From an uncultured Gemmatimonadaceae bacterium (GTDB lineage: Bacteria; Gemmatimonadota; Gemmatimonadetes; Gemmatimonadales; Gemmatimonadaceae), in contig CAWHHI010000012.1 of NCBI GenBank assembly GCA_963829055.1, forward strand, positions 256,001 through 320,000: 64,000 nucleotides of DNA, written 5' to 3'. Under the pieces are notes generated by a model that saw nothing but the letters and a program-made list of their open reading frames with translations, made no database searches and was not told the origin of the DNA. Position 1 is the stretch's first letter. The number at the start of each line of letters is the position of its first letter. Of the stretch, positions 142 through 64,000 are shown one piece after another. The translations under genes were made by a program, and so were the position numbers.

Positions 142-818
142 TGTCGTCCGATACGGGCACCGACCCGCTCGTCATCCGCGACCTGAAGTTTCTCGGGCCG
201 ATGGCGACCGTGGACGGCTGGCGGCCGACAACGACACTGCCGGAAGTCGCGTTCGCTGGACGCTCGAACGTCGGCAAGTCGTCGCTGCTGAACAAGCTCG
301 TGCGTCGAAAGGCGTTCGCTCGAGTCAGCCGCACGCCCGGCCGAACGCGCGAGATCAACTTCTTCGAAGTGAATGGGCAGTTCGTGTTCGCGGACCTTCC
401 CGGGTACGGATACGCCCGGATCTCGAAAGAACGCCGCGCCGAGTGGCGTCCGCTGATCGAGTCGTACCTGCGACGGTCGCCAAACCTGCGCGGTGTGGTC
501 CAGCTCATCGACGTCCGACGGGAACCAAGCGACGATGATCTGCAGATGCTCGACTTTCTCGCTGAGGTCGGCGTCCCTACCATCGTTGCCGTGACGAAGG
601 TCGACAAGCTATCGACCGCAGCGGCCGCGGCGCGCGTCAGCGAGATCACGATCGCGTTAGGTCTCGACGGCGATCAGGTGATTCCGTTCAGTGCGCACAC
701 CGGCCTTGGCCGCGACGAGCTCGCCACTGCCATCGTGTCGCTGATGCAGTCGTCGTCCGACGAGGACGCGGGCGAGCCACCGGAACCACAGGAACCACAG
801 GAACCGGAGTTGGCGTGA
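141..818 (+). CDS. engB: Ribosome biogenesis GTP-binding protein YihA/YsxC
   Basis: PEVAFAGRSNVGKSSLLN, SRTPGRT, DLPGYG and TKVDK G-motifs. Confidence 0.95.
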   Translation: MSSDTGTDPLVIRDLKFLGPMATVDGWRPTTTLPEVAFAGRSNVGKSSLLNKLVRRKAFARVSRTPGRTREINFFEVNGQFVFADLPGYGYARISKERRAEWRPLIESYLRRSPNLRGVVQLIDVRREPSDDDLQMLDFLAEVGVPTIVAVTKVDKLSTAAAAARVSEITIALGLDGDQVIPFSAHTGLGRDELATAIVSLMQSSSDEDAGEPPEPQEPQEPELA

Positions 819-1525
819 TGGCACGGGCGGCATTGCACCGGTTTGCGTTGCTTGCCACGTCGTTCTCGGGGCTCTTCGGCTGCACCAGCACCGCCGGCAC
901 GCCGGCGCCATCGTCGGGAGTACCATCGCCGGTCGCGTCCGCAGCCGATACCTCGCGCGCCCAGCGCCGAGGTCCGAACGACCCGGTGTCGGCGCAGGAG
1001 GTCCCACCCGGATTCGGCACGCTCCGCCAGGACGACGTGTCTCTCCGCATCCGGAGCTCCAGCCTGCAGGTCCGCGCGACGCCGCTGGATGAGTTCGTCA
1101 TCCGGCTGCTCTCGCCCGATTCGTATCGAGCGATGTCCGAGCTCAGGCGCAGCAAGAGCGACGCGATCGCCCAGGTCGCGCGTCGCAACGGGGCGCGCGA
1201 CGTGAGCGTGTGGTACGTCTCGTTCTTCGCCGTGGAGCGTGGGGAAACTCGATTCAGTCCCCGTGAGTTCATCATCACGAACGTTGGCAGGGACTTTCGG
1301 CCGCTCGACGTCCTCCCGTTGACGCCAGGCTTCGGCGAACAACGCCTTGCACAGAACGGCCGGCAGGATGCGCTGTACGTGTTCGATGGTCAGCTCGATG
1401 TGCAGCAACCGCTCACGGTGTCCTACACGACGGAGCGCAACGACGACTGGGCGAGCATCCTGCCGCGCATCGAGCGCGAGCGCTCGCTCGTGAAGAGTCG
1501 AGCATCCGCCGGACGCGCTCCGTGA
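815..1525 (+). CDS. Hypothetical lipoprotein
   Basis: Signal peptide with lipobox (LFGC), Pro/Ser/Ala-rich linker, and start overlapping the engB stop. Confidence 0.7.
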   Translation: MMARAALHRFALLATSFSGLFGCTSTAGTPAPSSGVPSPVASAADTSRAQRRGPNDPVSAQEVPPGFGTLRQDDVSLRIRSSSLQVRATPLDEFVIRLLSPDSYRAMSELRRSKSDAIAQVARRNGARDVSVWYVSFFAVERGETRFSPREFIITNVGRDFRPLDVLPLTPGFGEQRLAQNGRQDALYVFDGQLDVQQPLTVSYTTERNDDWASILPRIERERSLVKSRASAGRAP

Positions 1526-1553
1526 CGGCCAGCCGTCGTTCGCCTCGCCTTGG

Positions 1554-1585
1554 GACTCGTTAGGATACGTGACGAGTCGTTAGGT
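1554..1585. promoter_or_regulatory. Intergenic inverted repeat overlapping two tandem TCGTTAGG copies; candidate operator
   Basis: GACTCGTTA-ggatacg-TGACGAGTC (1554-1578); CGTTAGG at 1558 and 1578. Confidence 0.35.
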
Positions 1586-1620
1586 TACTCCGATCCCCCA
1601 GCACTTCCGGGACTGTCGCC

Positions 1621-2548
1621 ATGGTACTTCGTCCTCTTCGCGCGCTTCCGCCGCGCTCCGATGTCGCGCTCGCCGACGCCTGGCTCGAGGAGCTCGCCGG
1701 CGCACTCGCCGACCCGCGGTGCGACCGCGCCCTGTTCTGCCGGCGGACGCTGGCCGAGTTGGCGTACCCGCAGTACGCCGCCAACTGGGACACCGCGGTC
1801 GCCGACGCGTCACTGCCTGTCGCCACGCGCCTCGCGCTCAGTGCCCTCGACCCGCGCAACATCACGCTCGAGCCGGAATACTACGCCGAGTGCGACGACG
1901 CGAAGTTCCAGGCCGTCAAGCCATTGTTGTGGCTCTGGTACTCGTTCGATCGCCTACCCATCGGCGGGCAGAACGTCGATCTCGGGATCAAACTCCGCCG
2001 ATTGCTCGCGCCGTACATCTTCAAGCGCTGCGGCGCGAACTTCAAAGCGTTCCAGAACGTCGAGTTCTCGTTCGGCTACAACATCGAGGCTGGCGACAAC
2101 GTGGTGGTGCACCGCCACGTGCTGCTCGACGATCGCGGCGGCATCGTGATGGGGAACAACGTTTCCATCAGCGACTACGCCAACATCTACAGCCACACGC
2201 ACAGCATCGTCGATCAGCGAGACGTCACCAACGCGGTGACCGTCCTCGACGACGGCGTGCGCATCACGTACCACGCGACGGTGCTCGCGGGCGTACACGT
2301 GGCTGAACAGGGCATGGTGGGCGCCATGGCGGTGGCGACGAAGGACGTGCGCGGCTACCACGTCTACGTCGGGCATCCCGGCGAAGAGCGTGCGCGTGAA
2401 GCCGAACGCGCCTCACGAGTCGACGCGCGTGACGAGCGTGCGCGGTTCGGCCGCCGGGCGACGGCGGCAGCAACGGGTAGCCGACGGGACCAGCCGATCA
2501 GATCACGCGCAGCACGTCCTCGGCTGGCCCGGCATCGCCGGTGCCTAA
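1621..2548 (+). CDS. Hexapeptide-repeat (left-handed beta-helix) acyltransferase; apparent frameshift near 2371, 3' end uncertain
   Basis: GDNVVVH, GNNVSIS, DDGVRIT and VLAGVHV repeats. Removing one G at 2371 restores the typical VYVGIPAKSVR tail. Confidence 0.8.
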
Positions 2549-2962
2549 CAAGATCTGGATGTGGGACAGCGCCTCGCGCTCCCGCGGCCACGTGAAGCGA
2601 GTGGATGCGTCCGCCAGCGTGAGCCATTCGTGACGCTGGTGTTCGTCGCCGAGCTTGACGTCGCTCGTCTCGCTCACGAACGCGGCGAACACGACCGCCA
2701 TCTGCACGACGCCAAGGGCGTGCAGGTAGAACGGCTGACAGGTGATGCTGTAGAGCCGATCGATCGTGAGCCCAGTCTCCTCGCGCACTTCACGGACGGC
2801 GGCGTCCTCGGGCCGCTCGCCGGTCTCCATGCGCCCGTGCACGGTCTCCCACGACGCGGGGCAGCGGGTATTCAGCCCGCGCTGGAGCGCGAGGACGAGC
2901 CAGTCGGGGCGATACGGGCGGATGACGTACACGTCCACGACGCCGACGCGAATTTCAGTCAT
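2498..2962 (-). CDS. NUDIX hydrolase (NudB-like)
   Basis: Nudix box GRMETGERPEDAAVREVREETGL; EHQRHEWL motif. Confidence 0.9.
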   Translation of the reverse strand: MTEIRVGVVDVYVIRPYRPDWLVLALQRGLNTRCPASWETVHGRMETGERPEDAAVREVREETGLTIDRLYSITCQPFYLHALGVVQMAVVFAAFVSETSDVKLGDEHQRHEWLTLADASTRFTWPREREALSHIQILLGTGDAGPAEDVLRVI

Positions 2963-3001
2963 TCGCGTAAGCTATCAGCGATCGACGTATGAGCTGCTCG
3001 C

Positions 3002-5242: not shown

Positions 5243-5308
5243 TTTGCGTTGCGGGCTCGTTCGTGATGCGGCTTGGGCGCACCGCACCAAGTCCGCGGCC
5301 CGCCGCTG

Positions 5309-7402: not shown

Positions 7403-7498
7403 GATTGCCGAATATCGCCGACGTCAGAGGCGCCTACAAGCGTCGTCCCACCTCCAGCACGCGCGGGTTCATGCTGCCCGACCAGCAACGGACCGCGC

Positions 7499-8981: not shown

Positions 8982-8990
8982 CTTCTGCGC

Positions 8991-10583
8991 ATGGCGTTTC
9001 GGCTCGTCAGTCCAGACGGCGATCAGGTGTTCGAGCTGCGCCGCGGAGCGGCGTTGACGGTGGGACGCGCGCTCACGAGCGACGTCCCACTGCTCGACCC
9101 CACCGTATCCCGCCGGCACGCGTCGCTCGTCGCGGACGAGGCGGGCATCGAGCTCAACGACCTCGGCTCGAGCAACGGCACGTTCGTGAACGGCGCGCGC
9201 GTGGAGCACGCGCGCGTGTCTCCGGGCGACGTGCTGACGTTTGGCAAGCTGTCGTTCAACGTCAATCAGATCGAAGCGTCGGAGAACGGAGGTGACGGGC
9301 ACAGCTCGCGCTTCGCGCCAACCATCGTGCGGCAACGCGCGGTGCCTGACGCGCAACAGGCATTCGCCGACGCGTTGCGAGCGAGCGGCTCGCAGGCGGT
9401 GGTGGACGAGACGGCCATCGTCCTGTCCGAAGAGCAACGCATTCGTCAGAAGCTCGCGTTGCTGCTCGAGGTGTCGAAGGCGCTCACGCGCGCGCCGGAT
9501 GTCGTCACGCTGCTCGAGAAGATCGCCGAGATGGTGTTCCAGATCCTGGACGTCGATCGTTTCTCGATCCTTCTCCTCGACGAATCGGGCGACCTCATTC
9601 CCAGCATTGCCCGCGACAGGAGCGGCGCAAATCTTGGACGGACAGTGCCGCTGTCCATCGCTCGAAAGGCCATCGAGGAGAAGATCGCGATTCTGTCCGA
9701 CAACGCGCCGGAAGATCTGCGCTTCGCGGGCCAGTCGATCGTGCATCAGCAGGTCCGGTCCGCGGTCTGCGCACCGCTGATCGGGACCGAGAGCCGCGTG
9801 GTGGGCGTGCTGTACGTCGACAGCCTGACGAGCGCCCATCGCTTCAACGAGGATGACCTCGACTTCGTGGTCGCGTTCTCCGGCATCGTCGCCGTCGCAA
9901 TCGAGAACAGCCGCTTCGCCGAGCGTATCCGGCACGAGACGGTCGTGCGCAGCAACTTCGAGCGGTTCTTCAGCCCTGGGATGGCCGCGCGGATCGCCGG
10001 ATCGCCGGACGCCATCGCGTTAGGTGGCGAGCGACGATCCGTGGCCGTGTTGTTCGCGGACATCCGCAACTTCACGCCGCTCTCGGCCACCATGAGCCCG
10101 GATCAGACGGCACTGCTGCTGACGGAGTTCTTCACCGAGATGGTCGAGTGCGTGTTCAAGCACGGCGGTACGCTCGACAAGTTCATCGGCGATGCGGTCA
10201 TGGCCCAGTGGGGCGCGCCCATCACCGAGCTGGATGACGCCGATCGCGCGCTCGACGCGGCCGTCGACATGATGCGGTCGCTCGACGGTCTCAACATCCG
10301 CTGGCGCGAGCAGAAGCGTCCCGAGCTTCAGGTGGGGATCGGTCTCAATTACGGCGAAGCGTTCGCCGGTAACATCGGGTCGGAACGGCGACTGGAGTTC
10401 ACGGTCATCGGCGACACGGTGAACACCGCGAGCCGGTTGTGCGCGTGGGCCGAGGGTGGCGAGATCCTGCTGTCGCAGGCGTTCCGAGAGGCGCTCACGC
10501 GTCCGCACCCGCTCGTCGAGCGAACGCCGCTGTCGCTTCGTGGAAAGACCGAGCCGGTGGTCGTCTACCGAGCTCTCGCCTGA
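8991..10583 (+). CDS. Class III adenylate/guanylate cyclase with N-terminal FHA and GAF domains
   Basis: FHA (VGR, VSRRHA, DLGSSNGTFVNG), GAF (CAPL, VLYVDS), cyclase (FADIRNFT, DKFIGDAVM, GDTVNTASRL). Confidence 0.92.
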   Translation: MAFRLVSPDGDQVFELRRGAALTVGRALTSDVPLLDPTVSRRHASLVADEAGIELNDLGSSNGTFVNGARVEHARVSPGDVLTFGKLSFNVNQIEASENGGDGHSSRFAPTIVRQRAVPDAQQAFADALRASGSQAVVDETAIVLSEEQRIRQKLALLLEVSKALTRAPDVVTLLEKIAEMVFQILDVDRFSILLLDESGDLIPSIARDRSGANLGRTVPLSIARKAIEEKIAILSDNAPEDLRFAGQSIVHQQVRSAVCAPLIGTESRVVGVLYVDSLTSAHRFNEDDLDFVVAFSGIVAVAIENSRFAERIRHETVVRSNFERFFSPGMAARIAGSPDAIALGGERRSVAVLFADIRNFTPLSATMSPDQTALLLTEFFTEMVECVFKHGGTLDKFIGDAVMAQWGAPITELDDADRALDAAVDMMRSLDGLNIRWREQKRPELQVGIGLNYGEAFAGNIGSERRLEFTVIGDTVNTASRLCAWAEGGEILLSQAFREALTRPHPLVERTPLSLRGKTEPVVVYRALA

Positions 10584-10587
10584 CCGC

Positions 10588-11356
10588 ATGACGCAGGCAC
10601 CCGCCGGCTACACGCGGTTCGTGCTCTCCGGCGCCGACGTCGTCGCGCTCGGCACCTGCGCGGACGCCGTTAGGCACGCGATCGGCGAGCGATCGCTGTA
10701 CGCGTACGCGGCCGCGCACCCGGCGCGACGCGAGTTGCGTGGCCGCGGCGCCGCCTACGCGGTTCCCCTCCCCGACGGTCAGACGCGCGTCGTCGTGCGA
10801 CATTCCCGCCACGGCGGCTTGCTCGCTCCCGTCACCGGCGATCGTTTCCTGCCACCGACGCGGGCGCCTCACGAGTTGAAAACGGCGCTGCGGCTCACCG
10901 ACTCGGGCGTCGCCACGCCGGAGGTGATCGCGTATGCCACGTATCCAGCCGGCACGCTCCTGCGGCGCAGCGACGTGGCCACCCGCGAGGTCGTCGGGGG
11001 ATCGGACCTGGGCGCCGTGCTGGCTGGCGGCGATGCCGCCGGACGCGCGTGCATCGGTCTGGACCGCGACGGCGGAGCTGCTGCACGCGCTCGAGCGTGC
11101 CGGCGCGCGGCATCCGGATCTGAACGTCGGGAACGTACTCATCGTCGAGAATGGCGACGGATCGCGCCGAGCACTCGTCCTCGACGTCGATCGAATGGTG
11201 TTCGGGCGCGCGAACGACCGTCGAATCGGCGCGGCGAACATCGCGCGCCTCGTGCGCTCGCTGCGGAAGCTCCGCTCGCAGAGGCGCCTAACGGTCACCG
11301 ACGACGAGATGGAGAAGCTCGCGGTGCTCGCGACGAAACGAGGTAACCAGGAGTGA
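10588..11356 (+). CDS. Lipopolysaccharide/Kdo kinase (InaA/KdkA family); frameshift near 11040
   Basis: GRGAAY, VVRHSRHGG, HPDLNVGNVL and VLDVDR motifs; adjacent to a GT9 gene. Confidence 0.8.
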
Positions 11357-12416: not shown

Positions 12417-13016
12417 TCGGCCCGAACCGATACTCGACCCCGAGCTGCGCCATGAGCCGCACCATCAGGCCTAACGCGAGCCCCATCACGGCGAAATAGT
12501 CGCCGTCCACGCGCTCGACGATCGTCGCGCCGAATCCCTGAATGCCGTACGCGCCCGCCTTGTCCATCGGTTCGCGCGTCGCGATGTAGCGCGTGATGTC
12601 ATCGTCGGTCAGGCGTCGGAACGTGACATCCACCGACTCGACGCCCGAAACGAGTCGACCGCCCCGTGCCACGGCGACTGCGGTGAGCACCACATGCGTG
12701 CGCCCGGACAACCGACGCAGCATCACCGCGGCGTCGCGCTCGTCACGCGGCTTTCCGAGAATGTCGCCGTCGACGACGACGATCGTGTCCGCACCGATGA
12801 CCACCGCATCGTGTTCGAGCTCCGCGACCGCGGTCGTTTTCTCGCGCGCGAGACGTTCGGCGTGCGCGCCGAGGTATTTCGCCCGCGTAAGCGCGTCTCG
12901 TCGATGTCGGCAGCGCGTACGGCATGTCGGACACCAATCAGCGTCAGGAGCTCGCGACGCCTTGGCGAGGATGACGCGAGGACGACTCGTGGACCGCTCA
13001 GCGGTTGCTCAGTCAT
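12358..13016 (-). CDS. maf: Maf family nucleoside triphosphate pyrophosphatase; frameshift near 12860-12890
   Basis: [41 protein letters not shown]. Confidence 0.9.
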
Positions 13017-15207: not shown

Positions 15208-15212
15208 TCCCG

Positions 15213-15245
15213 TGGCGCCGTCCGCCTAACGGTGGACGGGCGCCA
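15213..15245. terminator. GC-rich hairpin between convergent flippase and glmS genes
   Basis: TGGCGCCGTCCGCC-TAAC-GGTGGACGGGCGCCA; no U-tract. Confidence 0.5.
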
Positions 15246-15262
15246 TGCCGCGCGATATCGCG

Positions 15263-17089
<1,827 letters not shown>

Positions 17090-17110: not shown

Positions 17111-18481
17111 TCAGGCAGTGAGCGCATCGAGCGGTTCGCGCGAGCGCGCGACGAGTGCACGCGCCGCGTCCACCGACGGCGCCTCGGCAATGACGCGCAC
17201 GATTGGTTCCGTTCCTGACGGGCGGATGTGGACCCAGCTGTCCGGCCAGGACAGTCGAAGTCCGTCCTGCGTGTCGACGTGTGCCCCGGTAAATGTCTTC
17301 CGTAGTGCTTCGTACACCGCATCCAGCGCGACGGGTGGACGATCGAGCTTGTCCTTCACGATCGCGTAACGCGGGTACTGAGAGACGATCTCCGACAGCG
17401 TTTCTTCACCTTCCGACAGCAACTGCAGCACCAGCGCGGCGGCCAACGGCGCATCCCGCCCAAGGTGCAACTCGGGCAGGATCACGCCACCGTTGCCCTC
17501 GCCACCGACAACGGCCTTCTCGTCGCGCATACGAATCGCGACGTTCACCTCGCCCACCGGCGCCCTGACGACTCGGCCGCCAGCCCTCGCCGCAATGTCG
17601 TCGACAATCCGACTCGTCGAGAGATTCGTTACAACCGTGCCCGGCCGCTGCGAGAGCACGACTCGGGCCGCAAGCGCGAGCGTGTAATCCTCGCCAATCG
17701 CGACCCCACCGTTGGCCACCAGCGCGAGTCGGTCGACGTCAGGGTCAACCGCGAAACCCACGTCCGCACCGGAGCTCGCGACGAGTCGCTCCAACTCCCC
17801 CAGGTTCTCCGGAACTGGTTCGGGCGGGCGTGGAAAGCGACCGTCCGGCTCGAGGTTAATGACCGTGACCTGGCAGCCCAGTCGTTCCAGCAGCGCCGGC
17901 ATGATCACCGCGCCGGCCCCTCGGCAGCAGTCCAGCGCCACCCGAAGCTTTCTCGCGCGAATGCGCGCCCCGTCGATCATCGGCAGCGCGAGAACGGCAT
18001 CGATGTGGCGCAACGGAGCTTCGTCGTCGGCTTCAACGAGGCCCAGCCGCTCCCAGGTCGCACGGGCGAACGGCTGACCGACCAGTGAACGCATGGCTGT
18101 CCCTTCGATCGCATCGAGGAACAGGCCCGTGGAGCCCACGAACTTGAGCGCGTTCCACTCGATCGGGTTGTGGCTGGCCGAGATCATGAGGCCGCCGCCA
18201 GCGTGATGGTGTTCGACAGCGAGCTGACAGGTTGGGGTCGTTGTAAGCCCCAGATCGATCACGCGGACGCCGACGGACTGGAGGGCGGCAATGACGCAGC
18301 GATGGAACATGGGGCCCGAGACGCGGCTGTCCCGACCGACCACGACCGGTTTCGTGCGGTCGGCCGCGGCCACCCAAGCCCCGAACGCTGAGGCATAGCT
18401 CGTTACGACTTCCGGAGTTAGGCCAGCACCAACGCGCCCGCGGATTCCCGAAACGCTCACCATCAACTGTTCAGCCGCCAT
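17111..18481 (-). CDS. glmM: Phosphoglucosamine mutase/phosphomannomutase family
   Basis: SGIRG, GRDSR, SASHNP, DPDVDR, GEGNGG, RPSGTEP; GGAGG RBS before the ATG at 18481; directly upstream of glmS. Confidence 0.85.
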   Translation of the reverse strand: MAAEQLMVSVSGIRGRVGAGLTPEVVTSYASAFGAWVAAADRTKPVVVGRDSRVSGPMFHRCVIAALQSVGVRVIDLGLTTTPTCQLAVEHHHAGGGLMISASHNPIEWNALKFVGSTGLFLDAIEGTAMRSLVGQPFARATWERLGLVEADDEAPLRHIDAVLALPMIDGARIRARKLRVALDCCRGAGAVIMPALLERLGCQVTVINLEPDGRFPRPPEPVPENLGELERLVASSGADVGFAVDPDVDRLALVANGGVAIGEDYTLALAARVVLSQRPGTVVTNLSTSRIVDDIAARAGGRVVRAPVGEVNVAIRMRDEKAVVGGEGNGGVILPELHLGRDAPLAAALVLQLLSEGEETLSEIVSQYPRYAIVKDKLDRPPVALDAVYEALRKTFTGAHVDTQDGLRLSWPDSWVHIRPSGTEPIVRVIAEAPSVDAARALVARSREPLDALTA

Positions 18482-21887: not shown

Positions 21888-21905
21888 CGCCGGACGACCT
21901 TCGGC

Positions 21906-45544: not shown

Positions 45545-47623
<2,079 letters not shown>

Positions 47624-48040: not shown

Positions 48041-48043
48041 CGA

Positions 48044-51123: not shown

Positions 51124-51153
51124 TCCTGCCTCGTTTCCCGTTCGAGACGCCGA

Positions 51154-51861
51154 TCAATACAGATATACCGTCATGCCCGGGGACAGGTTCGGCGCGATAG
51201 CGCGCAGATCCTGCGTACGGGCGCGAATCGCTCCTGGCAGCACATAGGAAGAATCGCTCAATGGGCCGCCTGTCGGGTGGCTGTAGATCACTGCGCCACC
51301 CGACAGCACGATAGCACCGGCCCCCAGGGCGCCCGCAATCGCGCGGTCTTCCGGTACCGGCATCCCGCGATCGACGTACACCCACTTGGGGACTTCCCAC
51401 TTGTCCTTCGCGGTCAGCACTCGCTCGACAGTCCTCGATCCGCGCGGCGCAACAATCTTGAGGGTGTCGGCCGCCGCGCCAACGCTTTTTTCCGGACCGA
51501 CATCGACCGGCATTTCACGAAGCAGCGCTCCTTCGCGCTCGAGGTACATGACCCCACTGTCGACCGCGACCGACAGGTGGAGGTCCTTGTCCAGATTTGC
51601 CTGCCGGCGCATCAGCTCGAGCGTGACCCGCATGCGATTCTCTTCCGCGGCGACGACCATGTCGGCCTTCCGCCGCTCCTGATCCGTCATGCCGGTGCGG
51701 AGCCTCGTGGTTTCCCGCGAGTACCTAACGCGTTGATAGATCAACCAGCCGTCGATCGCCAGCATCGACATGAGCAGCACCAACAGAACGGAGATGATTC
51801 CAGGATAGGCGAGCCGAAACTCGCGCCAGCTTTGGCGGCGGCGTTCTACAGGCGGCGTCAC
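51154..51861 (-). CDS. L,D-transpeptidase-like protein lacking the catalytic His/Cys
   Basis: Colinear with the neighbour (APRG, WEVPKWVY, LG, PGMTVYLY) but has VIYSH and LPGAIR in place of ALHGT and SHGCVR. Confidence 0.7.
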   Translation of the reverse strand: MTPPVERRRQSWREFRLAYPGIISVLLVLLMSMLAIDGWLIYQRVRYSRETTRLRTGMTDQERRKADMVVAAEENRMRVTLELMRRQANLDKDLHLSVAVDSGVMYLEREGALLREMPVDVGPEKSVGAAADTLKIVAPRGSRTVERVLTAKDKWEVPKWVYVDRGMPVPEDRAIAGALGAGAIVLSGGAVIYSHPTGGPLSDSSYVLPGAIRARTQDLRAIAPNLSPGMTVYLY

Positions 51862-53096
51862 TTGCGCGGGGTGATGGACAGGAGATCCAGAATCGGTACG
51901 CCGACGAGCTCACTCTTCCCGGTGCGAACACGGGCCGTGATCATCGCCTGCGTGAGCTCGGGCATCGCGTTCGCGCTCGACATGAGTGACGCCGGGACGA
52001 CAAGGTAGAGGAGCGCGTTCTCCTCGTTAGGGCCGCGCGCGAGCAAATACACCTCGTCCGGCGCGAGATCGCGGCGGAGCACGTCGGCCTTCTGCTTCGC
52101 GAGCACCTGCACGTTCCACCGCACGACCTTGCCGCGGCTTCCCTGTGGGTCGGCGCGAAGATCCGCTGCGCTCGTGCCCGTGCGCACCGCCGTATCCGCT
52201 GGCACGAGGTCGCGCTCCTGAACCCACCCCTCCAGCCGGACCCGAACCCACCCTCGCTCACGCGCGAGTGGAACGAGCGTGGTGCCCTGCGCGACCGTGG
52301 CGAGCGGACGGGCGTCGGGCGCGGCGCGCAGGGCGATGTTCGACGTTGGAACGAGCGTCGAATCCGACAGCGGTGATGACGATGACTTGGTGGCAGCTGC
52401 GGACTTGGTGACGGCAACGGCAGTCGGCGCGGAGGTCGCGGCCAGCCGAGCTTTCGGCTCGGGCGCATTGCCGCGTGCGGCCGACGGCTCCGCCGGCTTC
52501 TTCACCGCTGCCTTGCTCGTTGGCGACGATGCCACCTCGCCCCCGCTCGCCTTGCGAGACGAAGCGGCAGTGCTCGCGGCGGGTCGGCGCGACGGCGACG
52601 ATGCGCGCGCGACGTCCGCCGCAGATGCTCGATCGAGCGCGGACTGCAATACCCAACCCTCGCGCGAGATGCGCACCCAGCCTGTCGGCGCCTCTCCCGT
52701 GCGGACCACCACGGACGTGCCCGCGTCGAGCGACGCTACGCTGCGGGCCGACGTCGCACCACGCGACCGCACGACGGCGCTCCGACTTCCCACCCGGGTC
52801 GACGAAGCGCGGCGGTCTGGCGAGAGACGCGTCCGTTCGACGAACCCATCGATGGACACTTTGGCATAGGCACCACGCGTTTCGAGAACGCGGACCGACA
52901 AGCCCGGGTGGACGCTTCCGACTGCAGCACCCTTTGGCGACCCGAGGACTGCGGTCGGCGTGCTGACGACCCTCGATTGTGCCCGCGCCGACGTGGTGAG
53001 CACGACGGCAAGCGCGGCTGCCGCGCCAACTTGGCGCGCAACGCGAGACACAAAACGAGACATGGGTGTAGAAGGGCGCATCGCTGGTTGGTCCAT
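51858..53096 (-). CDS. Exported protein with three SH3b-like repeats
   Basis: YAKVSIDGFV, WVRISREGWV and WVRVRLEGWV repeats; signal peptide; Ala/Ser/Pro linker. Confidence 0.75.
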   Translation of the reverse strand: MDQPAMRPSTPMSRFVSRVARQVGAAAALAVVLTTSARAQSRVVSTPTAVLGSPKGAAVGSVHPGLSVRVLETRGAYAKVSIDGFVERTRLSPDRRASSTRVGSRSAVVRSRGATSARSVASLDAGTSVVVRTGEAPTGWVRISREGWVLQSALDRASAADVARASSPSRRPAASTAASSRKASGGEVASSPTSKAAVKKPAEPSAARGNAPEPKARLAATSAPTAVAVTKSAAATKSSSSPLSDSTLVPTSNIALRAAPDARPLATVAQGTTLVPLARERGWVRVRLEGWVQERDLVPADTAVRTGTSAADLRADPQGSRGKVVRWNVQVLAKQKADVLRRDLAPDEVYLLARGPNEENALLYLVVPASLMSSANAMPELTQAMITARVRTGKSELVGVPILDLLSITPRK

Positions 53097-53187
53097 GTGT
53101 GCCCGAATACATTCAACCGGAACTGGCGACCGCCGAGCGCGGCGCGCACAAATCTTCCGGCAAACGTAATTCAGAACAAGCGTACGA

Positions 53188-54738
53188 ATGGCGAACGATG
53201 AACACCGACCCGTCGTCCTCGTGGTGCTCGATGGGTGGGGGTACCGCGAGGCTCAGGAAGGCAACGCAATTCGAATGGCGCACGTGCCCACGTGGGACCG
53301 ACTCTGGTCACGCGCGCCGCGGACGCTCCTGGACGCGTCGGGACTAGCCGTTGGACTGCCGGAAGGCCAGATGGGAAACAGTGAGGTCGGGCATCTGAAC
53401 CTGGGTGCCGGACGTGTGGTGATGCAGGATCTCGTTCGCATCGACCTCGCCATCCGCGACGGCTCCTTCTTCGCGCTCCCGGCATTCACCAACGTCTGCG
53501 CCCACGTTCGAAGGACGGGCGGAACGCTGCACCTGATGGGGCTCCTGGGCGACGGCGGCGTGCATGCGGTCGACCGCCATCTGTTCGCGCTATTCGATCT
53601 GGTCGAACGCGAGCGTGTACCGCGGGCGGCACTCCACGCGCTTCTCGACGGACGCGACACGCTGCCGAAGTCGGCGCTGGGGTACATGGAGCAGACGATC
53701 GCGCGCGCCGCTGGAAGAGTCGTGGTGGGGAGCCTCGGCGGCCGCTACTACGGCATGGATCGCGACAAGCGATGGGAGCGCACGCAGCTCTGGTATGACG
53801 CGGCGGTCCTCGGTGTCGGACCCCAGGTGCAGGACCCCGTGGCGGCAATCCGTGATGCGTACGATCGAGGGGAGACGGACGAGTTCATCAAGCCAGTCGT
53901 TGTCGCGAACGACGGCTCGCCGATCGCACCGTTCCGCGACGGCGACGCACTCATCTGCTTCAACTACCGATCGGACCGCATGCGTCAGATGGTGCGCGCG
54001 CTCACCGACGACGCCTTCAGCGGCTTCCCGAGCCGGCATCCGAAGATCCCAGTGGCGACGATGACGTCGTACGACCAGACGCTCAACGTCCCAGTCGCGT
54101 TCCCGCCGCAGTCCATGGCGCGCATCGTTGCCGAAACGCTGGCCGAGCACGGACGGACGTCATTGCGGACCGCGGAGACGGAGAAGTACGCGCACGTGAC
54201 CTACTTCTTCAACGGCGGCGTCGAGATCCCGTATGCGGGGGAAGAACGCATTCTGGTGCCGAGTCAGAAGGTCGCGACGTACGATCTCGCGCCGGAGATG
54301 AGCGCGCACGGCATCACGGACGTCCTGTGCAACGCGATCGACACGCGATCGCACGACTTCGTGCTGTGCAACTACGCGAACGGTGACATGGTCGGCCACA
54401 CGGGATCCATTCCCGCGACGCTCAAGGCAGTGGAGACGGTGGATGCGTGCCTAACGCGCATCGTCGCCGCGGCGGAGCGCACGGGCGCGCGACTGCTCAT
54501 CACCGCGGACCACGGCAACTGTGAGCAGATGATCGACCCGGCGACGGGGGGCCCGCATACAGCACACACGACGAATCCGGTGCCCTTCCTCGTTGTCGAT
54601 CCCGGTGGCGGCAACGAGGAGCTGCGTAGCGGCGGAGCGCTGTGCGACGTTGGACCAACGATTCTCCGGATGCTGGGTATCGACCAGCCGGATGAAATGA
54701 CAGGCACTTCCCTCAGACCTTCCGGAGTGAGCGCGTGA
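53188..54738 (+). CDS. gpmI: 2,3-bisphosphoglycerate-independent phosphoglycerate mutase
   Basis: LDGWG, GQMGNSEVGH, DGRD, MDRDKRW, AETEKYAHVT, DMVGHTG, TADHGN. Confidence 0.97.
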   Translation: MANDEHRPVVLVVLDGWGYREAQEGNAIRMAHVPTWDRLWSRAPRTLLDASGLAVGLPEGQMGNSEVGHLNLGAGRVVMQDLVRIDLAIRDGSFFALPAFTNVCAHVRRTGGTLHLMGLLGDGGVHAVDRHLFALFDLVERERVPRAALHALLDGRDTLPKSALGYMEQTIARAAGRVVVGSLGGRYYGMDRDKRWERTQLWYDAAVLGVGPQVQDPVAAIRDAYDRGETDEFIKPVVVANDGSPIAPFRDGDALICFNYRSDRMRQMVRALTDDAFSGFPSRHPKIPVATMTSYDQTLNVPVAFPPQSMARIVAETLAEHGRTSLRTAETEKYAHVTYFFNGGVEIPYAGEERILVPSQKVATYDLAPEMSAHGITDVLCNAIDTRSHDFVLCNYANGDMVGHTGSIPATLKAVETVDACLTRIVAAAERTGARLLITADHGNCEQMIDPATGGPHTAHTTNPVPFLVVDPGGGNEELRSGGALCDVGPTILRMLGIDQPDEMTGTSLRPSGVSA

Positions 54739-55448: not shown

Positions 55449-55501
55449 CGGCGCCGCCCGACCGGGCCGCCGTGCACGAAATTGCCACGGCGAGGTGAGT
55501 G

Positions 55502-56017: not shown

Positions 56018-56115
56018 GCAAGCAGGTACACCGAGCGGCGCGTCGAGGACGCGCCGCTTTCACATCCGCGCGGCGCTACTTGCCTTGGCGTGAGCCGCCG
56101 GGAGATTTCGATCGC

Positions 56116-58036: not shown

Positions 58037-59649
58037 CCAGGCATGGCGCTCATCACCCTCGAAGAGGTCTCGACATGATGCGAACGGAGTCGTCGAGGCA
58101 GCTTCGATCGCGGGTCGTGCACCGCCGTCCCGGCCACACTCGGCGGGCCGTGGCAGCGACGTTAGGCGTGCTCGGCGCGGTCGGCTGTGCATCTGCCCGC
58201 GGTCGCTCCGGCGGATCACCTGGCACACGAGCCGAATTACGCCACGCGATCGACTCCATGGTGGCGCAGCCCAAGTTCAGCAACGCTCACTGGGGAATCC
58301 TGATCGTGGACCCGGAGCGTGGCGACACGCTCTATTCGCATAACGCGGGCAAGCTGTTCATGCCGGCGTCGAACCAGAAGATCGTCACGGGCTCGGTAGC
58401 GCTCACGCTTCTCGGCCCGGACTACCAGTTCAACACGGTGTACTCCGCGCGCGGGCCGATCGAAGGTGGCGTGCTGCGGGGCGACCTCGTCGTAGAAGGT
58501 CGCGGAGACCCGTCGATGAGCGATCACATGCGGGGCGACGTGATGCAGGCGCTCCGCACCGTGCCCGACTCGCTTCGAGCGCACGACGTACGCTACGTGT
58601 CGGGCAGGCTGCAACGCGGCGGCGACGCGTTTCCGGACGCGTGGCACGGCTTCGGCTGGGCGTGGGATGACTTCGATTTCGGATATTCCGCCGGCGTCGA
58701 TGAACTGTTCTTCAACGAAGGCATGTTCACCATCACGGTGCGAGGCGGTCAGCGGGAGGGCGCGCGAGCCACCGTTACGGTGAAGCCGGACATTGGATAC
58801 CCGTCGCTGCGATCGTTCGTGACGACGGTCCGTCGCCCGGACTCCACGCGAGGGCCGGACGGAATGATGGGGCTTCCGCGAATGCGATCGCCGAACGCAT
58901 CCGCGGATAGCGCGAGCGGCGTCGTCACGCTCAGCGGGCAGATCGCCATCGGCGATTCGGCAACCGTCGAGGTAGCGTACCGGGACCCGGGACTCGCGTA
59001 TCTGTATGCGCTGCGCCGCACGCTTGCCGACCAGGCGCTCACGGTCGAGGGCGGGCTCGACCCGCGGCCGGGTCGCGATACCACCGCGAAGCTGGACACG
59101 CTCTTCGTGATGAAGTCGCCGCCACTCCGTGAGATTCTGCCGGCGCTCGAGAAGCCATCGCAGAATCAGATCGCCGAGATCCTCTACAAGACCCTCGGCC
59201 TGGAGCGGGCGGGTGTCGGCACGGCCGATAGCGGACGCGCCGTGATCGAACGGCAGCTCACGAGCTGGGGCATTGCGCCGACCTCATTCGCGGTTCGCGA
59301 TGGCAGCGGCCTCTCGCGTCACGACTACATCGCGCCCGACGCCGTGGTCCGTGTCCTGGATGCGATGCGTCGCAGTCCCAACTTCGCGGTGTTCCGCGAC
59401 GCGCTGCCGCTCGCAGGGGTGGACGGCACCATCGCGAATCGAATGCGGGGCACCGCGGCGGCCGGGAACGTGCACGCCAAGACAGGGTTCGTGGACAAGG
59501 CCCGGTCGCTGTCAGGGTACGTCACGACTGCGAACGGTCGGATCCTGATCTTCAGCCTCCTGTGCAACAACTGGACGACGCCGCAACGCGACGTAGACCA
59601 GGTCGCCGACGCGATCGCTGTTCGCCTCGCCGGCCTCTCCGGGCGCTGA
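58033..59649 (+). CDS. dacB: D-Ala-D-Ala carboxypeptidase/endopeptidase PBP4 (peptidase S13), likely lipoprotein; start uncertain
   Basis: PASNQK, GRGDP, SQN, DGSGLSR, AGVDGT, AKTG. Confidence 0.93.
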   Translation: MTRHGAHHPRRGLDMMRTESSRQLRSRVVHRRPGHTRRAVAATLGVLGAVGCASARGRSGGSPGTRAELRHAIDSMVAQPKFSNAHWGILIVDPERGDTLYSHNAGKLFMPASNQKIVTGSVALTLLGPDYQFNTVYSARGPIEGGVLRGDLVVEGRGDPSMSDHMRGDVMQALRTVPDSLRAHDVRYVSGRLQRGGDAFPDAWHGFGWAWDDFDFGYSAGVDELFFNEGMFTITVRGGQREGARATVTVKPDIGYPSLRSFVTTVRRPDSTRGPDGMMGLPRMRSPNASADSASGVVTLSGQIAIGDSATVEVAYRDPGLAYLYALRRTLADQALTVEGGLDPRPGRDTTAKLDTLFVMKSPPLREILPALEKPSQNQIAEILYKTLGLERAGVGTADSGRAVIERQLTSWGIAPTSFAVRDGSGLSRHDYIAPDAVVRVLDAMRRSPNFAVFRDALPLAGVDGTIANRMRGTAAAGNVHAKTGFVDKARSLSGYVTTANGRILIFSLLCNNWTTPQRDVDQVADAIAVRLAGLSGR

Positions 59650-59654
59650 CGCCA

Positions 59655-60905
59655 ATGCAGACCGTGGCGGAAGCAAGCGGCCGGATTCTCCAGCACATCA
59701 CTCGGCTCGGGGTCGAGCGCGTCCCGCTCCTGGACTCGTTAGGCCGCGTGCTCGCGGAGCAGGTGCGCGCGCCGATGACGCTGCCGGCATGGGCCAACTC
59801 GGCCATGGACGGCTACGCCGTGCGCGCCGTAGACATCGATGGTGTCACGCCCGAGCGGCCCGTTCGCCTGCGCGTGCTCGAGACCGTCGCCGCCGGCGGC
59901 TTCGCGACGCAGCCGGTGGCCGCTGGCAGCGCCATCCGCATCATGACTGGCGCGCCGCTTCCCGAGGCCGCGGATACCGTCGTGCGCGTGGAAGACACGG
60001 ACGGCGGTACTGAAACCGTGGTCGTTCGCGACGCGCGGGATGCACGCCGCAACGTGCGTCCCCGCGGCGAAGACTTCGAGGAAGGCGACCTCCTGCTGGA
60101 TGTGGGCGCGGCGTTGGGCGCCGCTCAGATCGGGATTCTCGCGTCCGTCGGACGATCATCCGCGGACGTCTTCCGCCGACCGCGCGTCGCCATCCTCGGC
60201 TCCGGTGACGAGCTCGTCGACGTCGACCGGTTCCACGAAGTGCTCGCCGGCCGCAAGATCATCTCGTCCAACGGCTACACGCTGCAGGCGCTCGTGCGTG
60301 ACGCCGGCGGAGTTCCCGTGCACCTCGGCGTGGCGGCGGACGATCCGGCATCGTTGCGGGACCATCTCCAACGCGCGATCGGGTGCGATCTCCTGATCAC
60401 GTCCGCCGGCGTGTCCGTCGGCGAGTTCGACTACACGCGCGACGTGATCTCGGCGTTAGGCGCCGAGATGAAGTTCTGGCGCGTGCGCATGCGTCCGGGT
60501 GCCCCGCTGGGGTTCGGCCTGCTCGGCACCATGCCGTGGATCGGTCTGCCGGGAAATCCTGTGTCGGCGATGGTCACGTTCGAGCTGTTCGTGCGGCCCG
60601 TCATCCGTCGCATGCTCGGACACACGAGGCTGTTCCGACGACCGGTGTCTGTCGTCCTCGAGGAGCGCGTCACGATTGGCGCACGACTGACGCACTTCCT
60701 CCGCGCCATCGTGAGCACGCGCGATGACGGAACGGCGACGGCTCGGCTCACGGGGCCGCAGGGTTCGGGAATCCTGACGTCGATGTCCCTCGCGAACGCG
60801 TTGCTCGTCGTCCCCGAGGACCGCCCCGTTGTAGAAGCTGGAGAGATGCTGCACGCGTTGCCGCTGGGCGACACCGCCGGCCTAACGACGCAGTTCGCAC
60901 TCTGA
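59655..60905 (+). CDS. moeA: Molybdopterin molybdotransferase
   Basis: SAMDGYA, RIMTGAPLP, GDEL, GVSVGEFD, GLPGNPVS, QGSG. Confidence 0.95.
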   Translation: MQTVAEASGRILQHITRLGVERVPLLDSLGRVLAEQVRAPMTLPAWANSAMDGYAVRAVDIDGVTPERPVRLRVLETVAAGGFATQPVAAGSAIRIMTGAPLPEAADTVVRVEDTDGGTETVVVRDARDARRNVRPRGEDFEEGDLLLDVGAALGAAQIGILASVGRSSADVFRRPRVAILGSGDELVDVDRFHEVLAGRKIISSNGYTLQALVRDAGGVPVHLGVAADDPASLRDHLQRAIGCDLLITSAGVSVGEFDYTRDVISALGAEMKFWRVRMRPGAPLGFGLLGTMPWIGLPGNPVSAMVTFELFVRPVIRRMLGHTRLFRRPVSVVLEERVTIGARLTHFLRAIVSTRDDGTATARLTGPQGSGILTSMSLANALLVVPEDRPVVEAGEMLHALPLGDTAGLTTQFAL

Positions 60906-61615: not shown

Positions 61616-61797
61616 CTGGTCCCTGGAAGTTTGGAATGAAGATCACCGTCTCGAGACAACGGCCTGCATAACGCGGCTCCCGGCATTACCGGCACCCCGG
61701 CTGAGGCGTCCAACCACGAGAGGCTTCGCGCGCCGAATCGGGTCCGGCCGGGCCCTGTGGACAATCGGCGAATTCGTTCCCAGTCAATCCGTTCCGC

Positions 61798-62412
61798 GTG
61801 GCGGTGAACTTCAAGTACGGCGCCGAGGCCTTCGCGATGGCCGGCATCGCATATGGTCTGATCAAGTGGGTTGGCCGCAACGTGCGGTCGCTCCTCTCGG
61901 ACGCACGCCGCGAGGAGGGCCGCATCGCAGCCCTCGCCGCCGACATTCCCGCCGTAGCCGGCGACGCGCTCGTTCGACGGGGCATCGTGTCGGCCGATGA
62001 CTTTCAACGCATGACGCCGCGTGAGCGCGGGTTCCTGCTCGCGTCCATGCGACTGCCGGCGGGTGAGAGTGTCGCGGAAGAAGGTGCGACGAAGCGCACC
62101 ACGCCCCTGCCTGGCACTAGCGCGGGCGCGAGCACCACCACAACCACAACGACGACGCGCCGCTCGGCCCCAACGCCGACGCGCCTGCACCTCATCACGC
62201 CGTCGCGACCGCCGCTCGGCGTCGCGGTTCACTGCCCCGGCTGCGGCGCGCTACTCGATCGCGACACGCTGCAGCGGCTTGGAGCGACCACGTGTCAGCG
62301 GTGCAAGCGGCCGATCTCCGCGCACATCCAGCGCGACCGCCTAACGGTGATCGTCGAGGCGACGCCGGAAGAGGCCGAGCATCGTCGTCGCGTGGACGGG
62401 AGTCATTCGTAG
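61798..62412 (+). CDS. Hypothetical protein with a TM segment and C-terminal zinc ribbon; start uncertain
   Basis: CPGC...CQRC motif; Thr-rich linker; coding-like codon usage. Confidence 0.6.
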   Translation: MAVNFKYGAEAFAMAGIAYGLIKWVGRNVRSLLSDARREEGRIAALAADIPAVAGDALVRRGIVSADDFQRMTPRERGFLLASMRLPAGESVAEEGATKRTTPLPGTSAGASTTTTTTTTRRSAPTPTRLHLITPSRPPLGVAVHCPGCGALLDRDTLQRLGATTCQRCKRPISAHIQRDRLTVIVEATPEEAEHRRRVDGSHS

Positions 62413-62521
62413 CGTCACGCGGACCTGACGGCGAGATACAGCGTCTGGAACGGCACCTCTACCGGGACGCCAAGGATTCTCTCGACTGCGCGGCTGCCGC
62501 TCGCTCGGAATGACATCGGTG

Positions 62522-64000
62522 TCAGCTCGAGAGCTGGCCGGCGACGACCTCGGCGATGTCGTACACGGGAACGTCGGAGCCGACCGACTTCGCGCCATCC
62601 GAGATCATCGTCATGCAGAACGGGCAGGCAACGGCGAGGGCGTCCGCACCAGTCGCGAGTAGCTCCTCGGTACGTTCGACGTTGATCCGCTTCCCTTCTT
62701 TTTCTTCCATCCACATGCGCCCGCCGCCGGCGCCGCAGCACAGGCCACGGCTACGATTACGTGGCGGCTCGGCAATGGTCACGACGGGAAGCGCTCGCTT
62801 GAGCGTCTCGCGCGGCGCGTCGTAGACGTCGTTATAGCGACCGAGGTAGCAGCTGTCGTGGTACGCCACCACGAGCTGCTTGCCGTTGTCCGTGCGGAGC
62901 GGCACCAGCTCCTGCTGCAGCAGTCGCTCGATGTAGGTCGAGTGGTGGATGACCTCGTAGTTGCCACCGAGCTGCGGGTACTCGTTGCCCATCTGGTGGA
63001 AGCAGTGTGGGCACGTCGTGACGATCGTCGTGACCTGGTAGCGATCCAGTGTCTCGATGGTCTGCCGCGCGAGCATCTGATACAGGTACTCGTTACCCAT
63101 CCGTCGCGCGGGATCACCGTTGCACGACTCTTCCTGACCGAGGATCGCGAAGCGGATGTTCGCCGCGTTGAGGATGCGCGCGAACGCGACGGCAATCTTC
63201 TTCGCGCGATCGTCGAACGATCCCATGCAGCCCACCCAGAACAGGACGTCGGGACGCTCGCCGCGCTCCGCGAACTCGGCCATCGTCGTCACCCCGAGGC
63301 CGTCGGCCCAGCGTCCACGGTCCGCGGGTTGGAACTTCCATGGCGCGCCATTCCGCTCGAGCGCTTCGAAGGCGGGCTGTATCTCCTCGGGAAATCGGGA
63401 TTCCGTGAGAACGAGATTGCGACGTAGCTGGTTGATGACATCGAGCTGATCGATCGAGACGGGACATTCCGTAACGCACGCGCGGCACGACGTACACGCC
63501 CACAGCTCGTCTTCCGTGATGTAGTTATCCAGAAGTCGATTCGACGTGAGCTCGCTGAGCGTCGTTGCTCCAGCGTCGGCACCTTCGCCGGCGGCGAGCG
63601 CAGGGGCGACCACTTCCGAGCGATCGCCGACGAGCAGCGGCGCAAGCTCCAACGTCCGCTGGCGAACGTTCACCACGATCTTGCGTGGGCTCAGCGGCTT
63701 GCCGGTAATGTTCGCGGGGCACGCCGCCGTGCAGCGGCCGCACTCGGTGCACGAGTACCCGTCGAGCAGATTCTTCCACGTCAGATCCTTCACGTCCGAC
63801 GCGCCGAACTGCTCGACCTCCGCCTCGAGGTCCATGGGGCGCATCACGCCGACCTGGCCAGGGCCGCTCGTGTTCGAGAAGTACGTGTTAGGCAGCGACG
63901 TGATGACGTGCAGGTGCTTCGAGTACGGCAGATAGTTCAGGAACACGAGCAGAAGCACGGCATGCATCCACCAGCTCACGCGAGCGATCGGCGATGCGAT
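62522..64000 (-). CDS. Membrane Fe-S oxidoreductase (FadF/HdrD-like, CCG domains), 5' end outside window
   Basis: PYSKHLH, CTECGRCTAACP, CTSCRACVTECP, TCPHC, YHDSCYLGR, CCGAGGG, ACPFC. Confidence 0.92.
   Translation of the reverse strand: MASPIARVSWWMHAVLLLVFLNYLPYSKHLHVITSLPNTYFSNTSGPGQVGVMRPMDLEAEVEQFGASDVKDLTWKNLLDGYSCTECGRCTAACPANITGKPLSPRKIVVNVRQRTLELAPLLVGDRSEVVAPALAAGEGADAGATTLSELTSNRLLDNYITEDELWACTSCRACVTECPVSIDQLDVINQLRRNLVLTESRFPEEIQPAFEALERNGAPWKFQPADRGRWADGLGVTTMAEFAERGERPDVLFWVGCMGSFDDRAKKIAVAFARILNAANIRFAILGQEESCNGDPARRMGNEYLYQMLARQTIETLDRYQVTTIVTTCPHCFHQMGNEYPQLGGNYEVIHHSTYIERLLQQELVPLRTDNGKQLVVAYHDSCYLGRYNDVYDAPRETLKRALPVVTIAEPPRNRSRGLCCGAGGGRMWMEEKEGKRINVERTEELLATGADALAVACPFCMTMISDGAKSVGSDVPVYDIAEVVAGQLSS

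Follow-up and report, generated by a model that had tools for sequence, protein, structure and literature searches.

Why does a single non-palindromic octamer, CGTTAGGC (reverse complement GCCTAACG), recur in ordinary housekeeping genes of an uncultured Gemmatimonadaceae bacterium? The question is raised by a 64,000-nucleotide stretch of its DNA (GenBank assembly GCA_963829055.1, contig CAWHHI010000012.1, positions 256,001 to 320,000; hereafter the window), which encodes, among others, glmS, IMPDH, moeA, ubiA/ubiD, iPGM and methyl-accepting chemotaxis proteins (MCPs). A pattern search of the window finds 26 exact copies of the octamer (12 +, 14 −). Here we report that the word pervades the genome, that it has left its mark on the encoded proteins, and that closely related species differ sharply in carrying it. 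We interpret it as a lineage-specific self tag, most likely an uptake sequence resembling the DNA uptake sequence (DUS) and the uptake signal sequence (USS). This is the reading towards which our comparative analysis leans, and we put it at somewhat less than an even chance.

The octamer is in excess throughout the genome

A sequence-only reading of the window had listed these 26 copies and 14 further ones that differ by one base. All were recovered at their positions, and none of the 40 GTTAGG/CCTAAC hexamers of the window lies in a sequence with more than one mismatch to the octamer. The excess that had been claimed is clear; the accompanying expectation of two to three copies was if anything generous, since 100 dinucleotide-preserving shuffles of the window gave a mean of 0.98 copies and a maximum of 5. 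Reading in several frames was likewise borne out, as xCG-TTA-GGC, xxC-GTT-AGG-C, xGC-CTA-ACG, xxG-CCT-AAC-G and a GCC-TAA stop are all found in the window.

The genome holding the window is a Gemmatimonadaceae metagenome-assembled genome (MAG) of 7.78 Mb in 20 contigs (G000; 66.6% GC, 86% complete). It contains 5004 copies of CGTTAGGC (2547 on the + strand and 2457 on the − strand), one per 1.56 kb, and all 20 contigs carry the word at 0.48–0.80 per kb. Markov models of orders 0, 1, 2 and 3 predict 297, 131, 102 and 258 copies, respectively, on both strands together, and under the order-3 model the word has the top z-score among all 8-mers. Masking the motif in the background lowers the order-3 expectation to 60 copies, which makes the enrichment 83-fold. 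An order-4 model expects 2916 copies, a circular figure, as most occurrences of the 5-mers within the motif come from the motif itself; ranking by maximal-order Markov models is uninformative because the sub-words of the motif share the same excess. Within called genes, 3321 copies are present, compared with a mean of 160 (range 154–169) after 10 within-gene synonymous-codon permutations. The enrichment is thus 17–83-fold over Markov expectation and 21-fold over the synonymous-codon shuffle, and the density of 643 copies per Mb compares with about 2–15 per Mb in motif-poor relatives. The sequence-only reading had staked its signal on an observed/expected ratio well away from 1 under such models and on presence beyond the window. 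The word survives both: 3321 against about 160 is far from 1, and the word also occurs in independent MAGs of relatives.

These numbers bear on the most sceptical explanation, namely that the word is no signal and arises from base composition, from codon or amino-acid usage, from a recurring protein motif or from faulty assembly. High-GC coding DNA does have skewed word frequencies, and the order-4 model expects thousands of copies. However, this explanation is already refuted by the controls and retains a negligible probability. The masked expectation and the codon shuffle both fall far below the observed counts; the copies lie in four frames, on both strands, in stop codons and in non-coding DNA; and motif-poor relatives of similar GC hold 6–60 copies. 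The word is found in MAGs from many independent assemblies, and near-identical strains are represented in 17 metagenome studies of rhizosphere, soil and sediment. Four independent short-read metagenome runs also yielded contigs across the window region itself (the read evidence consists of assembled contigs), and among the 40 of 598 differences listed between these contigs and the window, none falls at a motif site.

The flanks of the copies show no consensus except a weak G on each side and a 3-base coding periodicity; therefore the word is an isolated octamer and not a piece of a longer repeat or mobile element. Measured against the masked background, tolerance is concentrated at the ends: T at position 1 is enriched 17-fold, and T and G at position 8 are enriched 21-fold and 14-fold, respectively. 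The G6>T variant is 9-fold enriched, T3>C and T4>C are weakly so (about 3-fold), and variants at G2, A5 and G7 reach 0.4–1.1 of expectation. The GTTAGG core of the octamer is essential. As judged from these word counts, the variant spectrum resembles what the binding energies of a protein reading GTTAGG with preferred flanks would give. A dialect, CGTTTGGC, was detected in one relative, G010, where 925 copies (110 for the control word) stand beside 605 canonical ones. It is enriched in G010 only; in the other 40 genomes of the panel described below it is near 1:1 with controls.

Coding sequence is shaped around the word

Genes were called with a codon log-odds model, which gave 7321 genes covering 76% of G000. 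Coverage is low because the assembly has 1-bp indels. One base is missing at each of window positions 26180 and 37467 in contigs of three other runs; at 28361/2, contigs of three other runs each omit one base, at either position; and 33743 is a further place where contigs of other runs omit one base. Since independent runs omit single bases relative to the window, the assembly carries single-base indel errors, and genes split across frames elsewhere in G000 are explained by them.

In the called genes, all four stop-free frames are used with a strong bias (1319, 453, 613 and 936 copies), and 53% of the copies are in sense orientation. The density is 0.56 per kb inside called genes and 0.92 per kb outside, a contrast that is approximate because called genes make up 76% of the genome. 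The word accounts for 46% of all TTA codons of called genes, and stops lie within it in 240 of 902 TAA and 194 of 1884 TAG cases. It also encodes a sizeable share of particular peptides: 22% of [ATSP]-L-G, 24% of [RGSC]-L-T, 46% of P-N-[AGVDE] and 9.6% of V-R-[RLQHP]. Tripeptides that the motif can encode are 1.1–2.0 times as frequent as their reverse-order controls (PND 1.97, ALG 1.54). Without the motif-coded cases the ratio is about 0.7–1.2, with most values at 0.8–1.0. The tripeptide excess thus vanishes with the motif-coded cases, which indicates that the word has altered the proteome, beyond codon choice.

The word is unpolarised and evenly spaced

The near-equal strand split of the window (12:14) extends genome-wide (2547/2457). 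Polarity was assessed in 100-kb neighbourhoods with an absolute GC skew of at least 0.008. There, CGTTAGGC lies on the G-rich strand in 1296 of 2541 cases (51%), compared with 60% of genes, and local strand fluctuations on the long contigs are weak. Replichore polarity is therefore absent, which disfavours words of the Chi and KOPS (FtsK-orienting polar sequence) type, as the sequence-only reading had foreseen.

A Chi-like hotspot would be a single-stranded octamer read by AddAB, RecBCD or AdnAB, which would switch the enzyme to RecA loading and mark self DNA in double-strand-break repair. The Escherichia coli Chi is itself an 8-bp non-palindromic word, a Chi-like role has been proposed for the cyanobacterial word HIP1 (highly iterated palindrome 1), and G000 encodes an AddAB-like helicase–nuclease pair (G000:C15:9162-16046; L193, L194), which lies in six frame pieces. 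Nevertheless, we regard this explanation as improbable. Beyond the missing polarity, RecC was not found in G000, and the AddB-like part is present in 7 of 47 genomes, uncorrelated with the motif, and in one of the 25 higher-count panel genomes (G004). Because the AddB part occurs in only 7 of 47 related genomes, the pair is accessory in this group; AdnAB was not searched for. Additionally, a 17–83-fold enrichment that forces rare codons goes far beyond the levels we know for Chi.

Copies avoid one another at short range. Among 4984 gaps, 1.4% are shorter than 100 bp (6.3% expected) and 4.3% are shorter than 200 bp (12.3% expected). The variance/mean ratio of counts per 1–2 kb is 0.81, compared with 1.0 for a random arrangement and 1.07–1.28 for five equally frequent control words. 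At scales of at least 20 kb the distribution is patchy, owing to motif-poor islands. Segments of 10 kb with GC <0.64 or >0.70 contain 2.1–3.7 copies, and the remaining segments 5.7–7.1. The largest motif-free island (G000:C6:5440-55037, 49.6 kb; L175–L177) combines a GC content of 69% with atypical codon usage. Ordinary genes are encoded in it (PGM, an NTP-transferase and a DAHP synthase), together with a second FtsK, 47% identical to the FtsK of contig C16. This island probably either entered the genome recently or is a chimera of the assembly.

The word is carried by some lineages and conserved at orthologous sites

To place the word in the phylum, we counted it in 41 genomes of the order and in 401 Gemmatimonadota genomes. 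All seven members of the window's genus in the 41-genome panel hold 2501–5112 copies. G014 belongs to a different genus and holds 6360 copies in 5.1 Mb. Counts of 345–605 are seen in six panel genomes, and one of 177 in G038; the majority of the rest stay below 60, well under the reversed-word control. In the wider survey, counts of at least 1000 are confined to G000, G305, G298, G241, G402, G324, G166 and G212, and counts of 450–860 are seen in G293, G350, G194, G364, G174, G122, G219, G299 and G132. Of the genomes rich in the word, G305 is complete, in 4 contigs. Families f4–f12, represented by 136 genomes, stay at or below 70 copies throughout. Four unpublished genomes (G013, G086, G204 and G125) enter these counts solely as motif-poor entries and are the basis of no claim. 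In samples of 75–260 kb, the word ranks first among over-represented 8-mers in G014, G010, G040 and G019 and shares first place with one other word in G020. The glmS loci of 80 genomes (small samples of 2–14 kb each) revealed no other dominant 8-mer containing A/T.

Rich and poor species coexist within single genera. In genus g46, G241, G298 and G402 carry 3479–4141 copies, whereas G294 carries 66, and genus g77 is similarly mixed, with four rich and two poor species. The natural on/off contrast in g46 should expose a candidate reader gene. At two glmS loci, L026 and L025, GlmS is near-identical and the DNA is 80% identical, yet the motif density is 0.51 per kb in the former and 0 in the latter; all seven L026 copies face 1–4 mismatches in L025.

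Conservation was assessed by aligning about 54–59 kb of the window to five genomes of the same genus (77–79% DNA identity). Of the alignable sites, 15/24, 12/24, 7/22, 5/21 and 15/26 still carry the motif (24–63%), compared with a perfect retention of 16–17% for all 8-mers in the same alignments, so that the motif is kept 1.5–4 times better. Copies private to G000 typically face CGCTCGGC in the relatives, a CTC-to-TTA Leu replacement that takes two changes. Across genera, 10 of 32 glmS sequences (79–93% protein identity) have the word at the equivalent site of the gene, and motif-poor genomes have CTC or CTG at that site. Motif-bearing loci group together on a quick tree of GlmS alone (49 rows), where 6 changes are needed, compared with 11.7 in shuffles.

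Copies in the window

The frame xCG-TTA-GGC accounts for nine of the exact copies. Two of them are found in this genome only: 21387..21394 (+), where five of five relatives carry CGCTCGGC (CTC, Leu), and 25806..25813 (+). The copy within glmS (15974..15981, −) is retained in four of five genus relatives, and that in the MatE gene (40782..40789, −) in all five. The others lie at 12469..12476 (−; GCG-TTA-GGC in a gene on the − strand), 30458..30465 (−, ubiA-family gene), 36379..36386 (+), and 59737..59744 and 60454..60461 (both +, moeA). Seven copies are read as xGC-CTA-ACG: 11286..11293 (−, GCCTAACG on the + strand; CGC-CTA-ACG, R-L-T), 19333..19340 (−, MCP gene), 29990..29997 (+, ubiA-family gene), 42209..42216 (+, Mrp/NUBPL-type ATPase gene), 54449..54456 (−, iPGM gene), 60880..60887 (−, moeA) and 62339..62346 (−). 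The GTT-AGG frame is used at 26008..26015 (+), at 31044..31051 and 31935..31942 (both −, MCP genes) and at 33655..33662 (−, ubiD-family gene), and CCT-AAC at 15224..15231 (−, P-N) and 41830..41837 (+, Mrp/NUBPL-type ATPase gene).

Two copies provide stop codons. The one at 21882..21889 (−) gives a TAA stop (GCC-TAA); the one at 39007..39014 (+) encodes P-L-G near the end of a + strand gene and doubles as the TAA stop of the gene converging on it, and is retained in five of five relatives. The copy at 58160..58167 (+) is retained in all five as well, and 10668..10675 (+) lies outside called genes.

Six of the one-off copies are CGTTAGGT, the variant enriched 21-fold genome-wide: 655..662, 1578..1585 and 10018..10025 on the + strand, and 21487..21494, 40275..40282 and 51723..51730 on the − strand; at 40275..40282 the relatives G001 and G005 have the exact motif. 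TGTTAGGC, which is 17-fold enriched genome-wide, lies at 2543..2550 (−), 20919..20926 (+) and 63886..63893 (+). The remaining ones, all on the + strand, are CGTTAGGA at 1558..1565 and 46375..46382, AGTTAGGC at 18416..18423 and 45556..45563, and CGTTAGGG (14-fold enriched genome-wide) at 52025..52032. Separately, window positions 3002-5290 (−) encode a T2SSE ATPase (type II/IV secretion) with an MshEN domain and a C-terminal fusion to a response-regulator receiver.

The octamer matches the integron core site

The integron R' box reads GTTRRRY, and its archetypal core site is GTTAGGC. The sequence-only reading had pointed out that the octamer fits this consensus, and the match proved closer than suggested: in the attC arrays of sister families (G027, G025 and G029), the R' core plus the preceding C is the octamer letter for letter. 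Motif-poor genomes of family f2 contain few copies, on one strand and roughly 500–750 bp apart. In G027:C95:1-20000 (L183) we identified 23 co-oriented attC sites with cassettes of about 500–750 bp. Each copy there has a GCCTAAC and a paired stem about 90–110 bp upstream, with the layout GCCTAACA-AGCGCTTGAAGCTG...loop...CAGCTTAAGCGC-nnn-CGTTAGGC. By its sequence organisation, this array is a chromosomal integron cassette array. Further cassette array loci (L184–L186) are located in G027:C95, G025:C3 and G027:C80, the last of which also has a partial integron-integrase match.

The copies in G000 might then be attC sites, their remnants or secondary integrase sites. Besides the shared R' end, such an integron-related origin can point to an integron-type integrase encoded in G000 itself (G000:C20:208041-208958, L187; TIGR02249, 265.7 bits, cut-off 265). 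However, no recognisable attC array adjoins this gene, and the nine copies nearby lack an attC fold. These copies are mostly on the − strand to its left and on the + strand to its right, an arrangement that may be due to chance. A hidden Markov model (HMM) built from 34 attC sites gave no G000 match even at E<=10, compared with 56 in the positive control. The arrangement GCCTAAC..40-150..GTTAGGC is not commoner in G000 than its mirror image (86 versus 66). The tolerated variants also depart from GTTRRRY, as GTTAGAC stands at 0.4-fold and GTTGGGC at 0.6-fold of expectation, GTTATGC is 9-fold enriched, and the dialect has GTTTGGC. Lacking an HMM match, arm pairing and a fold, and varying off the consensus, the G000 copies are therefore not attC sites. 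Furthermore, they occupy conserved, in-frame positions in housekeeping genes, and IntI, over the cut-off in 24 of 41 relatives, is unrelated to the motif, with no match in the rich genomes G002 and G004. We thus consider an integron-related origin very improbable. The identity of the octamer with the attC core, as read from these arrays, may reflect chance or history.

No cognate methylase follows the word

We searched G000 (86% complete) for DNA methylases of the families PF00145 (C5), PF01555 (N4/N6) and PF02384 (N6_Mtase) and found no match. A single Dam-class (D12) methylase gene is present (G000:C8:134573-135647, L171), split by a frameshift, so that its N-terminal half is read in another frame than its DPPY half; in relatives of the genus its open frames span 329–576 amino acids and are mostly intact. 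Matches to this gene occur in 15 of 41 relatives, rich and poor alike, and it was not found in seven motif carriers, namely G014 (the richest), G010, G019, G020, G036, G038 and G040. The methylation-directed motif that the sequence-only reading had offered as one option is accordingly disfavoured.

The same data bear on a mutational or repair ratchet, in which a methylase together with very-short-patch-type repair, or biased conversion, would make a functionless word out of near-matches. The non-enriched variants at positions 2, 5 and 7 (0.4–1.1-fold) could reflect conversion into the motif, and a comparable process was proposed for HIP1 by Elhai, as cited in PMC5861425. We assign this explanation a slim probability. 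G000 has no C5, N4/N6 or type I-like methylase, Vsr not having been searched for; its Dam-class gene does not follow the motif; and a pure ratchet leaves the deficit of close neighbours unexplained.

A proposed uptake tag and its competitors

The uptake-type self tag that we favour can be pictured as follows. A putative sequence-specific protein would read CGTTAGGC as double-stranded DNA, and the transformation machinery (type IV pilus, ComEA and ComEC) would prefer DNA that bears the word. Homologous recombination of such DNA, combined with mutation and selection, would spread the word and maintain it about once per 1.5 kb in both orientations. The word would settle where the coding cost is least, that is, in synonymous Leu codons (TTA/CTA), Pro-Asn, stops and intergenic DNA. 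We infer both a reader in an uptake or recombination pathway and the competence of these bacteria. Parts of a transformation machinery are encoded in G000: ComEC, a small HHH_3/ComEA-like open reading frame (ORF), and seven ORFs with a type IV pilin N_methyl signal, five of which exceed the Pfam cut-off. The sequence-only reading had preferred the uptake class. Every hallmark of that class that can be tested in silico is present, save two, the terminator pairs and ComP; uptake itself we infer.

Several observations weigh against this interpretation. Close inverted pairs are not a habit of the word: of 4984 neighbour pairs, 30 inverted and 41 direct ones are closer than 100 bp. The octamer, having no flanking consensus, is shorter than the 10–12 bp of DUS or the 9-bp core plus flanks of USS, and the contrast between coding and non-coding density is approximate, as stated above. 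A search with the profile ComP_DUS (PF16732) drew a blank in G000, and in 15 motif-rich genomes nothing reached the cut-off; the ComP-like pilin that the sequence-only reading suggested looking for was thus not found in them. The profile exceeded its cut-off in 1 of 26 genomes, the motif-poor G016, in a search whose control genomes contained no Neisseria. No gene among those profiled tracks the motif across relatives. ComEC is present in 40 of 41 relatives irrespective of the motif. The globular part of an orphan pilin on C16 has confident matches (E<=1e-8) in four of six same-genus genomes and weaker ones elsewhere. That of an orphan pilin on C11 matches rich and poor genomes and misses the rich G014, G194, G293 and G350. 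Both comparisons are to be read with the fast divergence of pilins in mind. Since ComEC is near-universal and the two profiled pilins show no clean pattern, the machinery, as far as it was profiled, does not discriminate between carriers and non-carriers. In the literature searched, we found no report of uptake, binding or competence for Gemmatimonadota and no printed description of the CGTTAGGC motif. Finally, the population-genetic hallmarks would also arise for any selected genome-wide protein-binding site, as argued for HIP1.

This last point leads to the strongest competitor, a HIP1-like chromosomal word, that is, a site for an abundant nucleoid-associated, repair or segregation protein that has no role in uptake. 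Hyper-abundance, conservation above the 8-mer background and non-random spacing are described as hallmarks of HIP1 in PMC5861425. The all-or-little distribution of the word among close relatives is as expected if a single reader gene, whatever its kind, had been gained or lost, and no uptake-specific gene among those profiled follows the motif. On the other side, CGTTAGGC is non-palindromic and a cognate methylase was not found. A chromosomally needed site is also unlikely to be dispensable in a sister species, as it would have to be in G294 (66 copies, compared with 3479–4141). We therefore judge this alternative unlikely, though it deserves serious consideration. It partly merges with the uptake tag because HIP1 itself has been argued to act in transformation.

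A more far-reaching version of the uptake tag is possible but doubtful on the present comparisons. In this version, the word would be the first uptake-type self tag outside Proteobacteria, with a receptor of its own, switched on and off in sister species, possessing a dialect, and with a specificity borrowed from or tuned to the attC core. If so, cells would preferentially import the DNA of kin together with integron cassettes, all of which end in the word, and the identity with the integron core, if not a coincidence, would tie natural transformation to cassette capture.

Gemmatimonadota are a soil phylum with almost no genetics. With thousands of copies, on/off contrasts within genera (g46 and g77) and a dialect, the reader gene should be findable by comparative genomics and its function directly testable. 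If the word is an uptake tag, kin-biased transformation evolved independently in soil bacteria, and adding the word to transforming DNA would offer a handle for the genetics of this phylum.

Comparison with known systems

Among the systems to which the word can be compared, integron attC sites share its letters, the octamer being identical to the R' end. The copies in G000 differ from attC sites in having no partner arm or fold and in lying in conserved genes on both strands.

Chi, KOPS and AIMS (architecture-imparting sequences) are likewise 8-bp non-palindromic words and are read by DNA-processing motors. According to passages of PMC5861425, they are strand-polar relative to replication. CGTTAGGC differs in being non-polar (51%) and far more enriched, and in a host group where RecC was not found in G000 and AddB is sporadic.

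HIP1 of cyanobacteria is the only other comparably abundant genomic word known to us and has resisted explanation for 30 years. Passages of PMC5861425 describe it as an octamer (GCGATCGC), 15–300-fold over-represented, read in several frames, conserved and non-randomly spaced. It is palindromic and tied to two cognate orphan methylases (as presented in parts of PMC4390886 and PMC13756078). The roles suggested for it now include transformation (argued in parts of 10.1101/2024.09.10.611283 and PMC13756078) and a Chi-like function (proposed in 10.1101/2024.09.10.611283), beside Elhai's mutational ratchet. CGTTAGGC resembles HIP1 as an iterated octamer inside genes that is hyper-abundant, conserved and non-randomly spaced. 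It differs in being non-palindromic, and no cognate methylase follows it.

To our knowledge, uptake sequences are otherwise known only in Proteobacteria, and we know of experimentally established sequence-biased DNA uptake in two proteobacterial families only. The features that these sequences share, as laid out by Findlay and Redfield (PMC2817400) and by Treangen et al. (PMC2397512), are a hundreds-fold excess, equal orientations, even spacing, under-representation in coding DNA, frame bias, a roughly 2-fold tripeptide enrichment, stringent conservation and absence from recently acquired genes. The octamer departs from DUS and USS in its host phylum, in being patchy even within one genus, and in that G000 has neither terminator-type inverted pairs (frequent for DUS, less so for USS) nor a ComP homologue. 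It resembles them in being a non-palindromic word with about one copy per 1–1.5 kb, balanced strands and even spacing. Like them, it is denser outside genes, is biased in frame and enriches the tripeptides that it encodes. It is also conserved at orthologous sites, rare in atypical DNA and varied into lineage dialects.

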